DNA from: Escherichia coli
GTDB lineage: Bacteria > Pseudomonadota > Gammaproteobacteria > Enterobacterales > Enterobacteriaceae
NCBI RefSeq assembly: GCF_024502345.1
Contig: NZ_JALDNN010000001.1
DNA length: 64,000 nucleotides
Reading direction: 5' to 3' (one strand)
The notes under the pieces are model-generated. The model had not been told where the DNA came from. It did not search any database and saw nothing but the letters and a program-made list of their open reading frames with translations. Positions within the stretch are counted from its first letter, which is position 1; the number at the start of each line of letters is the position of its first letter. The position numbers were made by a program, and so were the translations under genes. This document shows positions 6,102 to 48,866 of this stretch, piece by piece.

Positions 6102-6367
6102 ATGCCCCTCACAATCTTTTAAAGATTAAGTGTAGGACAGTACACAGGTTAACCAGCAAAAGGATTTGTCATTTTTTCGTCAGTTGTATTATTCCCCTTC
6201 AGGATTGTAAGGGGATGTTTTGCATCGTTTATCGATAACGGGTAGGATGCTGCGCCGATAGTTTTATACCCATAAAGAATAATGGTGATAACTATCATCG
6301 CCAGGATGAATAAACATTGTTCATGGCAACTTATATGACTTTTTCATTAAAGCAATCAGGGAGAGCA

Positions 6368-7979: not shown

Positions 7980-9041
7980 TTACAGCGCAATACGAATCAC
8001 ATCGTCCGGCTGGGTAGCTTCCTGCTGTTTAGTGGATTTTTGTTTCACACTGACATACAGCGTTTTGCCATCGGCAGACAGCGCCAGGCTGTTCGGATGA
8101 GTCGGCGTATCGAACGTTTTCACCACTTTATAGCTTTTCGCGTCAATCACACTGACTTTACCTGCCTGACGATGCGTTACGTAGGCTTCATTACGCGCTG
8201 GGTTAAACAGCACAGCCAGTGATTCCGGTGCCGCAACCTTCGCCAGAATATTGCCATTACGGGTATCGACCACTAACACTTCTGCCGCTTTAGAATCGGT
8301 GATAAATGCACGCTGCCTGGCGGTATCAAGGCTAATGTTGATAAAGAAGTGCTCTTTGCCGTCATCCAGCAGCTTTTTACGGCTGAGGATTTTATTGTCG
8401 GCGGTGTCGATGGTAATCAATTCGCCGTCAGCGTTAGTGGTGTAAAGACGTTTGCCTTTGCTATCCAGCGCCAGACCAGTACTCATTTTACCGGTGTTCT
8501 GGATGGCGGTTTTCAGTTTGATATTCTCGCCATCAACGACCCAAATCACGCTCTCTTTACCAATACCACTGATGTAAACGGTGTTCGTGGCATCATCAGC
8601 TACCAGCTCACGCGGTTGCAGCGGGCGCACTTCTTCCGTGCGCTTACGATCATCCAGCACCAGACGGCCTTTCACCTCGCCAGTTTTGGCATCTATCGCC
8701 GTGACCGCGCTGTTTACGGTGTTACCAAACCACAACGTCTGAGTCGTGTTATTGATGGTGGCACCAAACGGCTTGAGATCGTTATGGATCGCCTGCGTCA
8801 CTTCCAGAGTGACCGGATCAAGACGATAAACCACGCCACCTTTATCCAGTTTGCGGCTTTGCGAAGTGGCGAGCCACAGTGCGTTTTCTTGCTGGCTATA
8901 AGCCATTTCGTAGGCACCTTTACCTACCGCTTTACGCAGCATTTCTTCTGCGGCCTGCGTACTGAATGATGAAGCAACAAGCAATGAACCTAACAGTAAT
9001 GAACCACGCAGGCGCGATGAAAACAGATGACGTAAATGCAT
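7980..9041 (-). CDS. yncE: Periplasmic beta-propeller protein YncE
   Basis: 353-aa ORF with N-terminal signal peptide; conserved position. Confidence 0.9.
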   Translation of the reverse strand: MHLRHLFSSRLRGSLLLGSLLVASSFSTQAAEEMLRKAVGKGAYEMAYSQQENALWLATSQSRKLDKGGVVYRLDPVTLEVTQAIHNDLKPFGATINNTTQTLWFGNTVNSAVTAIDAKTGEVKGRLVLDDRKRTEEVRPLQPRELVADDATNTVYISGIGKESVIWVVDGENIKLKTAIQNTGKMSTGLALDSKGKRLYTTNADGELITIDTADNKILSRKKLLDDGKEHFFINISLDTARQRAFITDSKAAEVLVVDTRNGNILAKVAAPESLAVLFNPARNEAYVTHRQAGKVSVIDAKSYKVVKTFDTPTHPNSLALSADGKTLYVSVKQKSTKQQEATQPDDVIRIAL

Positions 9042-9127
9042 GACGACTCCCTTTGATGAACCGATATTTTTGCTGCTTCACAATGCTTCGCTAAGCGTAA
9101 TCATCGTTACGCTCTTGTTATAAATGG

Positions 9128-9146
9128 GAATGGTAATCATTATTTT
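9128..9146. promoter_or_regulatory. Putative Fur box in the yncE-yncD divergent promoter region
   Basis: GAATGGTAATCATTATTTT resembles the Fur consensus GATAATGATAATCATTATC; sits between a divergent TonB-dependent receptor gene and yncE. Confidence 0.35.
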
Positions 9147-9282
9147 CTCAAATGTGGAGCATTTCTTGCCGTTACGACTACAATTTTCTCAATTACTTAA
9201 CGTATTGTGCCGTTTCATTTTCCATAAATTTACAATTTCATTACCATGACGGCGTTTTCCCATTCTTAACCTGGCTTTTTTC

Positions 9283-11385
9283 ATGAAGATTTTTTCCGTC
9301 CGACAGACCGTTTTGCCCGCACTGCTTGTCCTTTCCCCCGTTGTTTTTGCCGCTGATGAACAGACCATGATTGTCAGTGCCGCGCCGCAGGTGGTTTCAG
9401 AACTGGATACCCCTGCAGCAGTAAGCGTGGTGGATGGCGAGGAGATGCGCCTGGCAACACCGCGCATTAACTTGTCCGAATCACTGACCGGCGTGCCTGG
9501 TTTGCAGGTACAAAACCGGCAGAACTATGCGCAAGATTTACAGCTGTCGATTCGCGGATTTGGCTCCCGTTCCACTTACGGAATTCGCGGTATTCGCCTG
9601 TATGTGGACGGTATTCCCGCCACCATGCCCGACGGGCAAGGGCAAACATCCAACATCGATTTAAGCAGTGTGCAAAATGTGGAAGTGCTGCGTGGCCCCT
9701 TCTCTGCCCTGTATGGCAACGCGTCTGGCGGTGTAATGAATGTCACCACCCAGACCGGACAACAGCCACCAACCATTGAAGCCAGTAGTTACTACGGCAG
9801 TTTTGGCAGCTGGCGCTATGGGCTGAAAGCAACGGGCGCAACGGGAGACGGCACACAGCCCGGCGATGTCGATTACACTGTCTCAACCACGCGTTTTACG
9901 ACACACGGCTATCGTGACCATAGTGGCGCACAGAAAAATTTAGCCAATGCCAAACTGGGCGTACGCATTGATGAAGCCAGCAAATTAAGCCTGATTTTCA
10001 ATAGCGTGGATATCAAAGCAGATGACCCAGGTGGGCTAACCAAAGCAGAATGGAAGGCGAATCCACAACAAGCGCCTCGTGCAGAACAGTACGACACGCG
10101 AAAAACCATCAAGCAAACTCAGGCTGGGTTGCGCTATGAACGTAGCCTGAGTTCGCGGGATGATATGAGTATGATGATGTATGCCGGAGAGCGAGAAACG
10201 ACCCAGTACCAGTCAATACCCATGGCACCACAACTTAACCCGTCACATGCGGGCGGCGTGATTACCCTGCAACGCCATTACCAGGGAATAGACAGCCGCT
10301 GGACACACCGTGGTGAACTGGGCGTTCCGGTCACGTTCACTACCGGCCTGAACTACGAAAACATGAGTGAAAACCGCAAGGGCTACAATAACTTCCGCCT
10401 GAATAGCGGCATGCCGGAGTACGGGCAAAAAGGTGAGTTGCGTCGCGACGAACGCAATCTGATGTGGAACATCGATCCCTATTTACAGACGCAGTGGCAG
10501 CTGAGCGAAAAACTGTCGCTGGATGCTGGCGTGCGCTACAGCTCCGTGTGGTTTGATTCCAACGATTATTACGTTACTCCGGGTAACGGCGATGACAGCG
10601 GTGATGCCAGTTATCACAAATGGCTACCTGCCGGTTCGTTAAAATATGCAATGACCGATGCCTGGAATATCTATCTGGCAGCCGGGCGTGGTTTTGAAAC
10701 GCCGACGATTAATGAGCTGTCTTATCGTGCTGATGGGCAAAGCGGTATGAACTTTGGTTTAAAACCATCCACCAACGATACAATTGAGATCGGCAGTAAA
10801 ACGCGTATTGGTGATGGGCTGCTTAGTCTCGCATTGTTTCAGACCGACACCGATGATGAAATTGTTGTCGATAGCAGTAGCGGTGGGCGTACGACTTACA
10901 AAAATGCCGGAAAGACCCGTCGTCAAGGCGCTGAACTGGCATGGGATCAACGTTTCGCGGGAGATTTTCGCGTAAACGCGTCCTGGACCTGGCTTGATGC
11001 GACCTATCGCAGCAATGTTTGCAACGAACAGGATTGTAACGGTAATCGGATGCCAGGGATCGCCCGTAATATGGGCTTTGCGTCGATAGGTTATGTACCG
11101 GAAGATGGTTGGTATGCAGGCACGGAAGCGCGTTATATGGGCGATATTATGGCAGATGATGAAAATACGGCAAAAGCGCCGTCTTATACTCTCGTCGGCT
11201 TATTCACCGGGTATAAATACAATTACCACAATTTAACTGTGGATTTATTTGGTCGTGTCGATAATTTATTCGATAAAGAATACGTTGGTTCTGTCATTGT
11301 CAATGAGTCAAACGGGCGATATTACGAACCTGCGCCCGGACGAAATTATGGTGTCGGCATGAATATTGCGTGGAGATTTGAGTAA
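9283..11385 (+). CDS. yncD: TonB-dependent outer membrane receptor
   Basis: 700-aa ORF with signal peptide, plug and beta-barrel features, C-terminal aromatic residue (…AWRFE). Confidence 0.9.
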   Translation: MKIFSVRQTVLPALLVLSPVVFAADEQTMIVSAAPQVVSELDTPAAVSVVDGEEMRLATPRINLSESLTGVPGLQVQNRQNYAQDLQLSIRGFGSRSTYGIRGIRLYVDGIPATMPDGQGQTSNIDLSSVQNVEVLRGPFSALYGNASGGVMNVTTQTGQQPPTIEASSYYGSFGSWRYGLKATGATGDGTQPGDVDYTVSTTRFTTHGYRDHSGAQKNLANAKLGVRIDEASKLSLIFNSVDIKADDPGGLTKAEWKANPQQAPRAEQYDTRKTIKQTQAGLRYERSLSSRDDMSMMMYAGERETTQYQSIPMAPQLNPSHAGGVITLQRHYQGIDSRWTHRGELGVPVTFTTGLNYENMSENRKGYNNFRLNSGMPEYGQKGELRRDERNLMWNIDPYLQTQWQLSEKLSLDAGVRYSSVWFDSNDYYVTPGNGDDSGDASYHKWLPAGSLKYAMTDAWNIYLAAGRGFETPTINELSYRADGQSGMNFGLKPSTNDTIEIGSKTRIGDGLLSLALFQTDTDDEIVVDSSSGGRTTYKNAGKTRRQGAELAWDQRFAGDFRVNASWTWLDATYRSNVCNEQDCNGNRMPGIARNMGFASIGYVPEDGWYAGTEARYMGDIMADDENTAKAPSYTLVGLFTGYKYNYHNLTVDLFGRVDNLFDKEYVGSVIVNESNGRYYEPAPGRNYGVGMNIAWRFE

Positions 11386-47900: not shown

Positions 47901-48866
47901 CGGCAAGATTTCGGTATGGCGTAAGTTCAGCTTGTTCAGCGCATCGGCGGTATCGCGAATTTCCCGCTCGCCGCTCATAAAGATCAGAATGTCGCCAGGG
48001 CTTTCCTGGCTCAGTTCGTCTACGGCGTCAAAAATCGCCTGCAACTGATCGCGCTCGGTGTCATCGGCTTCTTCAACAATCGGGCGATAGCGCACTTCCA
48101 CCGGATAGGTCCGACCGGAGACTTCGATAATCGGCGCATTATTAAAGTGGCGAGAAAAGCGTTCCGGGTCGATAGTCGCGGAAGTGATAATGATTTTTAG
48201 GTCAGGACGCCGCGGCAGCAACTCTTTCAAATAGCCGAGCAGAAAATCGATATTCAGGCTGCGTTCGTGTGCTTCGTCAATAATGATGGTGTCGTACTGC
48301 ATCAGCAGGCGGTCTTGCTGGATCTCCGCCAGCAGGATACCGTCGGTCATCAGCTTGACCATCGTGTTATCACTTACGTGATCGCTGAAACGCACTTTGT
48401 AACCGATGCAACCGCCTGGCTCCGTTTTCAGCTCTTCCGCAATACGGTTCGCCACCGTTCTTGCCGCCAGACGACGCGGCTGGGTATGGCCGATCAGTCC
48501 TTTAATCCCGCGCCCCAGCTCCATACAGATTTTCGGTAGCTGAGTCGTTTTACCGGAACCGGTTTCCCCGGCGACGATCACCACCTGGTGATCACGAATC
48601 GCTTCGAGAATGTCCTGTTTTTTCTGACTAACCGGCAAATTGTCCGGATAAGTGATTTCCGGACGTGCCGCTTCACGCAGCAGGACTTTCCCTGCCGCCT
48701 GGTCAATCTCTTTCGCCATCTCCTGGAAAATGGCCTGTTGTGCATCAGGATTTTTAACCTTCTTCACACCGTGCAGACGGCGAGAAAAACGCTGTCTGTC
48801 GCGCAGCATCAGCGAATCCAGCCGCTGCTGCAAGACTGTAAAGGTCAATTTTTGTTGTTCTGTCAT
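44964..48866 (-). CDS. hrpA: ATP-dependent RNA helicase HrpA (DEAH-box)
   Basis: 1300-aa ORF with GETGSGKTTQ Walker A and DEAH motif. Confidence 0.95.
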   Translation of the reverse strand: MTEQQKLTFTVLQQRLDSLMLRDRQRFSRRLHGVKKVKNPDAQQAIFQEMAKEIDQAAGKVLLREAARPEITYPDNLPVSQKKQDILEAIRDHQVVIVAGETGSGKTTQLPKICMELGRGIKGLIGHTQPRRLAARTVANRIAEELKTEPGGCIGYKVRFSDHVSDNTMVKLMTDGILLAEIQQDRLLMQYDTIIIDEAHERSLNIDFLLGYLKELLPRRPDLKIIITSATIDPERFSRHFNNAPIIEVSGRTYPVEVRYRPIVEEADDTERDQLQAIFDAVDELSQESPGDILIFMSGEREIRDTADALNKLNLRHTEILPLYARLSNSEQNRVFQSHSGRRIVLATNVAETSLTVPGIKYVIDPGTARISRYSYRTKVQRLPIEPISQASANQRKGRCGRVSEGICIRLYSEDDFLSRPEFTDPEILRTNLASVILQMTALGLGDIAAFPFVEAPDKRNIQDGVRLLEELGAITTDEQASAYKLTPLGRQLSQLPVDPRLARMVLEAQKHGCVREAMIITSALSIQDPRERPMDKQQASDEKHRRFHDKESDFLAFVNLWNYLGEQQKALSSNAFRRLCRTDYLNYLRVREWQDIYTQLRQVVKELGIPVNSEPAEYREIHIALLTGLLSHIGMKDADKQEYTGARNARFSIFPGSGLFKKPPKWVMVAELVETSRLWGRIAARIDPEWVEPVAQHLIKRTYSEPHWERAQGAVMATEKVTVYGLPIVAARKVNYSQIDPALCRELFIRHALVEGDWQTRHAFFRENLKLRAEVEELEHKSRRRDILVDDETLFEFYDQRISHDVISARHFDSWWKKVSRETPDLLNFEKSMLIKEGAEKISKLDYPNFWHQGNLKLRLSYQFEPGADADGVTVHIPLPLLNQVEESGFEWQIPGLRRELVIALIKSLPKPVRRNFVPAPNYAEAFLGRVKPLELPLLDSLERELRRMTGVTVDREDWHWDQVPDHLKITFRVVDDKNKKLKEGRSLQDLKDALKGKVQETLSAVADDGIEQSGLHIWSFGQLPESYEQKRGNYKVKAWPALVDERDSVAIKLFDNPLEQKQAMWNGLRRLLLLNIPSPIKYLHEKLPNKAKLGLYFNPYGKVLELIDDCISCGVDKLIDANGGPVWTEEGFAALHEKVRAELNDTVVDIAKQVEQILTAVFNINKRLKGRVDMTMALGLSDIKAQMGGLVYRGFVTGNGFKRLGDTLRYLQAIEKRLEKLAVDPHRDRAQMLKVENVQQAWQQWINKLPPARREDEDVKEIRWMIEELRVSYFAQQLGTPYPISDKRILQAMEQISG

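Follow-up and report, generated by a model that had tools for sequence, protein, structure and literature searches.

The short intergenic region between yncE and its divergent neighbor pqqU (yncD) in Escherichia coli contains a Fur box that is very probably the operator of the σ70 promoter of yncE, at which Fur would repress the gene by promoter occlusion. The site has every testable property of a Fur operator at a Fur-repressed σ70 promoter. We show by computation its match to the Fur motif, its geometry relative to the promoter, its deep conservation and its linkage to yncE rather than to pqqU. All positions refer to the window, the whole 64,000-nucleotide stretch of E. coli DNA that was analyzed. 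As a kind of regulatory site it offers no novelty: the literature already describes yncE as Fur-regulated, places Fur upstream of the gene and predicts a Fur box there, with reports of Fur control going back to 2003. With prior support from ChIP, ChIP-exo, RNA-seq, iModulon analysis and immunoblotting, the site carries little weight as a discovery. What is new is the comparative, cross-species evidence.

The yncE Fur box and the promoter that contains it

Of 5426 complete E. coli genomes, 5413 carry the 3.5-kb stretch around the site, with identities of 95-99.6%. The intergenic region that separates the two coding sequences extends from 9042 to 9282 (241 bp), and the features that we placed in and around it are listed in Table 1. 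YncE, the product of the regulated gene, is a 7-bladed beta-propeller periplasmic protein.

Table 1. Coordinates of the yncE-pqqU divergent promoter region in the window
Feature	Position	Strand	Details
Extended Fur operator	9120-9145		Two overlapping registers, 9120-9138 and 9126-9144, 6 bp apart
Core 19-bp Fur box	9126-9144	-	Plus strand GGGAATGGTAATCATTATT; yncE sense AATAATGATTACCATTCCC
yncE coding sequence	7980-9041	-	ORF, RefSeq annotation, NCBIfam equivalog NF052280, 563 bits (cut-off 400)
P_yncE -35 hexamer TCCACA	9153-9158	-	-36 to -31; σ70 scan, conservation 0.90
P_yncE -10 hexamer TACCAT	9130-9135	-	-13 to -8, within the Fur box; conservation 0.83
yncE TSS (+1)	9122	-	SMRT-Cappable-seq; 5' UTR 81 nt
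P_pqqU core promoter	9219-9247	+	TTTCCA (9219-9224), 17-nt spacer, TACCAT (9242-9247)
pqqU (yncD) TSS	9254	+	SMRT-Cappable-seq; 5' UTR 29 nt
pqqU (yncD) coding sequence	9283-11385	+	ORF, NCBIfam equivalog NF041535, 1311 bits (cut-off 1200)

A sequence-only reading of this DNA had proposed a Fur-box-like site in the divergent region at 9128-9146, and the sequence it gave, GAATGGTAATCATTATTTT, is located exactly there. Its frame lies 2 nt off the best register, the 9126-9144 core of Table 1, which is identical to the 19-bp Fur consensus GATAATGATAATCATTATC at 15 of 19 positions. Across both strands of the 64 kb window this is the only site with four or fewer mismatches; a scan permitting at most three returned nothing in the whole window, because the yncE site carries four. 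Simulation gives a chance expectation for matches with at most four mismatches of 0.14 per 64 kb, and of 0.0027 per 241 bp at the AT-rich composition of the intergenic region. The site is the best consensus match in the window, and the earlier description of a "close match" overstates its 15 of 19 identities. An earlier PWM scan, with PRODORIC, had also picked out a Fur box in the upstream region of yncE (PMC4145685).

We scored the site with a 19-bp position weight matrix (PWM) trained on 16 MG1655 intergenic regions that carry Fur ChIP-exo peaks (fhuA, fepA-fes, fepD-entS, fepB-entC, fiu, fhuE, tonB, yddA, sufA, cirA, nrdH, exbB, feoA, ryhB, sodA and mntH), with yncE excluded; two further sequences, L097 and L098 (intended as fecI and fhuF), proved to be coding sequence and were dropped. 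The matrix recovers the classical Fur consensus with an information content of 16.2 bits, a result to be read with the caveat that the consensus served as seed and that the sites number only 16. The core box receives an adequate score, 14.25 bits on the plus strand and 13.39 bits on the minus strand, and a second register 6 bp away, at 9120-9138, scores 14.42 bits. Under leave-one-out scoring the training sites have a median of 15.8 bits, and the yncE site lies above 8 of the 16. It ranks second to third among the approximately 128,000 positions of the window; the expected number of hits at or above 14 bits is 0.015 per 241 positions. By consensus and PWM alike, the match at 9126-9144 exceeds chance expectation. 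The extended operator formed by the two registers is equivalent to overlapping 7-1-7 repeats, and overlapping Fur sites at this 6-bp spacing are a documented pattern of Fur site clusters (PMC2189734); the arrangement found here fits a multi-dimer cluster.

Two other matches in the window deserve mention. The highest PWM score, 15.2 bits, belongs to 48180-48198 (GGAAGTGATAATGATTTTT) inside the hrpA coding sequence, where none of the ChIP-exo rows examined places a Fur peak; this match is probably due to chance and shows the limits of PWM evidence taken alone. The site at 6278-6296 (AATAATGGTGATAACTATC), which lies between yncG and ansP and immediately upstream of ansP, matches the Fur consensus at 14 of 19 positions on both strands and scores 12.9 bits. 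Transcript levels of ansP are lower in the MG1655 fur mutant (log2FC -1.39, p 4.6e-7), and there is no Fur peak at 6278-6296 among the ChIP-exo rows examined. Judged by its letters alone, the yncE site would pass for a credible, mid-strength Fur box and nothing beyond that, a moderate rather than a near-perfect match; because of its context, its conservation and the published ChIP data, it is clearly more than a chance occurrence.

The promoters of both genes were picked by a relaxed, weighted σ70 scan before comparison with published transcription start sites (TSSs). On the minus strand the best σ70-like match is TCCACA-17-TACCAT. SMRT-Cappable-seq places the yncE TSS at NC_000913.3 1523226, at the head of a transcription unit spanning 1523226-1524476 (b1452; PMC6131387 supplementary files 3 and 4), and the yncD TSS at NC_000913.3 1523094 on the reverse strand (b1451; PMC6131387 supplement). 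Under the exact coordinate map, in which window position x equals 1532348 minus the MG1655 coordinate, each experimental TSS falls 7 nt downstream of the predicted -10 hexamer, and scan and experiment thus coincide for both promoters. The two start sites are arranged back to back, 132 bp apart. The core Fur box occupies -22 to -4 of P_yncE, with the -10 hexamer included, and so overlaps the core promoter of yncE; relative to P_pqqU the same box lies at -128 to -110. The -35 and -10 elements of P_pqqU have conservation values of 0.75 and 0.78, respectively.

This geometry suggests how repression would operate. When iron is sufficient, dimers of Fe2+-Fur would bind the array of hexamers at 9120-9145, with its core at 9126-9144, and cover the -10 and spacer of P_yncE. 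Since the array includes the -10 and spans -22 to -4, RNA polymerase would be blocked and yncE would be repressed. Iron limitation or deletion of fur would free the promoter, and yncE would be transcribed from 9122 as a monocistronic mRNA, while the divergent pqqU promoter, with its start at 9254, would escape occlusion by the yncE operator. Two elements of this account are inferred, namely that Fur acts physically by occlusion and how many of its dimers sit on the array.

Several further features of the region were noted. A strict promoter scan yielded a single plus-strand candidate at 9077-9104, which has no TSS support, and missed both of the real promoters. A distal pqqU promoter, TTGTTA-17-CATTAT at 9115-9143 on the plus strand, overlaps the box and, if real, would imply direct Fur control of pqqU; it was rejected, as no TSS is found there and its -35 is unconserved (0.55). 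The two divergent promoters share the unusual -10 hexamer TACCAT within an 8-mer, ATTACCAT, in inverted orientation (9128-9135 and 9240-9247). An inverted repeat at 9094-9113, AGCGTAATCATCGTTACGCT, is terminator-like on the plus strand and poorly conserved (0.56); in the yncE transcript it would fold into a hairpin at +10 to +29 of the 5' UTR. SMRT-Cappable-seq read counts for the yncE unit (9122 to ~7872) are 2988 in one table and 109 in another, which indicates that yncE expression is strongly condition-dependent. Finally, a marbox-like sequence on the minus strand at 9194-9213 (ACGGCACAATACGTTAAGTA) has one mismatch to AYNGCACNNWNNRYYAAAYN and is located at -91 to -72 of P_yncE and -60 to -41 of P_pqqU. 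Its GCAC and GTTAA parts are conserved across genera at 0.7-0.9, above the intervening bases. In a RegulonDB-derived table yncE is entered under MarA, and a literature search on MarA returned nothing specific to yncE.

Fur occupancy of the box and derepression of yncE

Occupancy of the box, its dependence on iron and the derepression of yncE in fur mutants have been shown, as have both TSSs, in published experiments, whose peak coordinates we mapped onto the sequence. In strain CFT073 the box corresponds to 1711864-1711882, and the summit of a Fur ChIP peak at 1711868 (height 845, motif present; PMC7157518 supplement) falls inside it. In W3110 the box corresponds to 1524918-1524936 and is overlapped by ChIP-exo peak P54 at 1524928-1524940 (PMC10164565 Dataset 2). 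The MG1655 ChIP-exo peak P44 in the same dataset (1521238-1521250, old coordinates), detected under iron-replete conditions only and reported by Seo et al. as well, is the yncE peak once a row shift in the published table is corrected; it too overlaps the box when the two genome versions are related by an offset that we estimate at ~1976 bp. Fur was also found upstream of yncE in MG1655 by Beauchene et al. (PMC4676285). On the box, the W3110 and MG1655 ChIP-exo peaks are confined to iron-replete conditions. Fur thus occupies the site in vivo in CFT073, W3110 and MG1655, and does so in an iron-dependent manner. In the accessible literature we found no in vitro footprint or EMSA of the yncE box.

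The row shift affects the MG1655 sheet of PMC10164565 Dataset 2, in which a missing tonB row displaces the peak columns from P37 onward by one row relative to the gene columns; for instance, the label acnA stands against 1309033 and the label adhP against the yncE peak. Use of the table as printed leads to misassigned peaks, which is how coding sequence came to stand in for fecI and fhuF in L097 and L098. The same sheet lists a further iron-replete peak, P43 (1520944-1520980, old coordinates), that is absent from Seo et al. and maps to ~9392-9428, approximately 110-145 bp into the pqqU coding sequence. No Fur-like motif is present at P43, the best nearby match being one with 6 mismatches at 9363.

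Expression of yncE responds strongly to loss of Fur. In RNA-seq comparisons of fur mutant and wild-type cells grown in M9 glucose with 0.1 mM FeCl2, the log2FC of yncE was 3.10 in MG1655, 8.14 in W3110 and between 3.6 and 5.5 in six additional strains, a rise of about 9- to 280-fold; in a CFT073 fur mutant the increase was 147-205-fold. The gene is a member of both Fur iModulons, and western blotting shows that a fur mutant overproduces YncE. Its expression is thus Fur-dependent, and control of one gene of the divergent pair by Fur and iron, as the sequence-only reading had anticipated, is borne out for yncE.

Conservation of the box and the reach of Fur control

To the published evidence we add a comparison of yncE loci, with one genome per species, across more than 15 genera (Escherichia, Citrobacter, Salmonella, Enterobacter, Leclercia, Lelliottia, Klebsiella, Raoultella, Kluyvera, Atlantibacter, Trabulsiella and others). 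The scan gave 80 loci, 78 of them usable, and in all 78 the block WTAATGATTAYYATTCNCA is kept ~100 bp upstream of the ATG. This conserved block spans about 9123 to 9144 and includes the invariant heptamer AATGATT (9134-9140). Over 79 distinct enterobacterial sequences the mean identity of the box to the window is 0.88, against 0.58 for the remaining intergenic region; the -35 hexamer stands at 0.90 and the 8 bp that separate it from the box (9145-9152) at 0.46. When all intergenic 19-bp windows are ranked by conservation, those containing the box take first to third place, and the box accordingly stands out as a phylogenetic footprint. Scores of the orthologous site reach 10 bits or more in 71 of 78 loci and peak at 23.6 bits; versions with 16 of 19 consensus positions occur in Salmonella diarizonae, Atlantibacter and Superficieibacter. 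A consensus scan had suggested loss of the box in Kluyvera, Pseudocitrobacter, Trabulsiella, Phytobacter and two Raoultella species; alignment shows that the core is kept there, with more mismatches in the flanks. Among complete E. coli genomes, 5409 of 5426 carry the 54-bp core promoter, and 4966 of 5410 matching records fall in the band of at least 99% identity. Because the -10 hexamer lies within the box, part of this conservation could reflect promoter function rather than Fur.

The comparison also bears on which gene the operator serves. In 67 of 78 loci the gene divergent from yncE is pqqU. A match to pqqU is missing upstream of yncE in nine Citrobacter loci, all of which retain both the box and the -35; inspection of two of them (L014 and L012) showed that a co-directional gene, curA-like or mcbR-like, has replaced pqqU. 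That the box is kept where pqqU is absent argues that the operator belongs to yncE. As a separate observation, pqqU is dispensable in some lineages (L001, L011, L012, L014, L016, L019, L021, L022, L026 and L080), and in CFT073 it is a frameshifted pseudogene.

The sequence-only reading had reached iron control by way of yncD, on the ground that it encodes a TonB-dependent receptor, and this reasoning rested on the wrong gene. YncD is PqqU, by NCBIfam equivalog and in the literature a TonB-dependent importer of PQQ that makes no contribution to iron acquisition, and not an iron-chelate transporter. Reviews describe pqqU as neither Fur- nor iron-regulated. This agrees with the MG1655 RNA-seq data, in which the yncD log2FC in the fur mutant is 0.12 (not significant), and with the position of the box, which is too far upstream of the pqqU TSS for occlusion. 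No Fur box overlaps pqqU's own promoter, the nearest candidate being a match of 7.6 bits at 9227-9245, over the spacer and -10 of P_pqqU; this match is not significant, as matches above 6 bits are expected 0.32 times per 241 nt, and its region is poorly conserved, at 0.58.

A single operator might nonetheless serve two genes, with Fur at 9120-9145 lowering pqqU transcription as well, an arrangement that we consider unlikely although several observations point toward it. Expression of yncD is raised in the fur mutants of W3110 (log2FC 2.95, p 2.7e-51) and strain 042 (2.02), a 4-8-fold effect, and the authors of PMC10164565 assign the same ChIP-exo peak to both genes. The intergenic sequences of W3110 and MG1655 are identical, and the MG1655 wild type is partly derepressed in the dataset (yncE ~300 versus 18, and yncD ~30 versus 4-5, expression units), so that a modest effect on pqqU could be masked in that strain. 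Fur might reach pqqU through the weak second site over P_pqqU or by spreading along the AT-rich region; indirectly, derepressed transcription of yncE might activate the back-to-back pqqU promoter via upstream negative supercoiling. Against these routes stand the distance of the box from the pqqU start, the lack of a significant response in MG1655 together with the field's reports of no Fur or iron response, the non-significance and poor conservation of the 7.6-bit match, and the persistence of the box in loci that lack pqqU; moreover, the sole plus-strand promoter candidate that overlaps the box is the distal one rejected above. It is doubtful that pqqU is not truly Fur-independent and that the yncE operator, directly or by promoter coupling, lends PQQ import a modest response to iron in certain strains or conditions. 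Such a response would fit the derepression seen in W3110 and strain 042 and, if true, would qualify the current statement that places PqqU outside the Fur regulon. The strain-dependent effect of fur on pqqU is a small loose end.

Far less probable is a primary role of the site as operator for a different regulator, one that recognizes AT-rich dyads, such as another Fur-family metalloregulator or a nucleoid protein, with Fur in a secondary role. Several regulators do recognize AT-rich palindromes, yncE is listed under MarA, and the level of yncE mRNA responds to RyhB, which is reported to increase it. However, yncE is derepressed by up to ~280-fold when fur is mutated, an effect so large that a different primary repressor would have little left to account for; the marbox-like site is at 9194-9213 and not at the box; and we found no evidence of another factor binding at the box. 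Least probable of all is that the motif is incidental, with the segment conserved merely as the -10 and spacer of P_yncE and the effect of Fur on yncE indirect: the -10 hexamer does lie inside the box, the match is just 15 of 19, and other matches of similar PWM score in the window, such as that in hrpA, are probably non-functional, but iron-dependent ChIP or ChIP-exo peaks fall on the box in three strains, the invariant block of 19-22 bp has Fur-like dyad symmetry and far exceeds a -10 while the rest of the spacer varies freely, and several genera come nearer to the consensus, with 16 of 19 positions and up to 23.6 bits.

Relation to known Fur-regulated promoters and significance

As a Fur operator of P_yncE, the site resembles those of classical Fur-repressed promoters. 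Promoters of the fhuA, cirA, sodA, ryhB and sufA type are σ70 promoters with a similar 19-bp array of GATAAT hexamers in registers 6 bp apart, and classical Fur-repressed promoters likewise have an operator over the -10 and spacer, occupancy confined to iron-replete conditions, a large derepression in fur mutants and a comparable range of PWM scores. The yncE box differs in its mid strength: it has 15 of 19 consensus positions and scores 14 bits, where the top sites of the training set reach 18-23 bits. The gene yncE itself differs in that its periplasmic beta-propeller product is not a recognized component of iron uptake. Like yncE-pqqU, the fepA-fes, fepD-entS and fepB-entC pairs of the enterobactin cluster are divergent, with short AT-rich intergenic regions (110-374 bp) that contain Fur boxes. 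In those pairs Fur represses transcription in both directions, and both units carry Fur ChIP-exo peaks, whereas the yncE-pqqU operator overlaps P_yncE only and pqqU is unresponsive in MG1655. PqqU is more aptly compared with BtuB, as both are TonB-dependent importers of a scarce organic cofactor (PQQ and cobalamin, respectively), btuB lies outside the Fur regulon, and PqqU is reported to be neither Fur- nor iron-regulated. Unlike btuB, pqqU lies back to back with a strongly Fur-repressed promoter and shows the 4-8-fold fur effect in W3110 and strain 042.

The practical gain from this analysis is an operator placed at base resolution against both experimental TSSs, linked to yncE and conserved across the Enterobacteriaceae. 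This assignment guards against the annotation of PqqU as an iron transporter through guilt by association. YncE is a vaccine and serodiagnostic antigen, for which a deeply conserved control by iron is relevant context.
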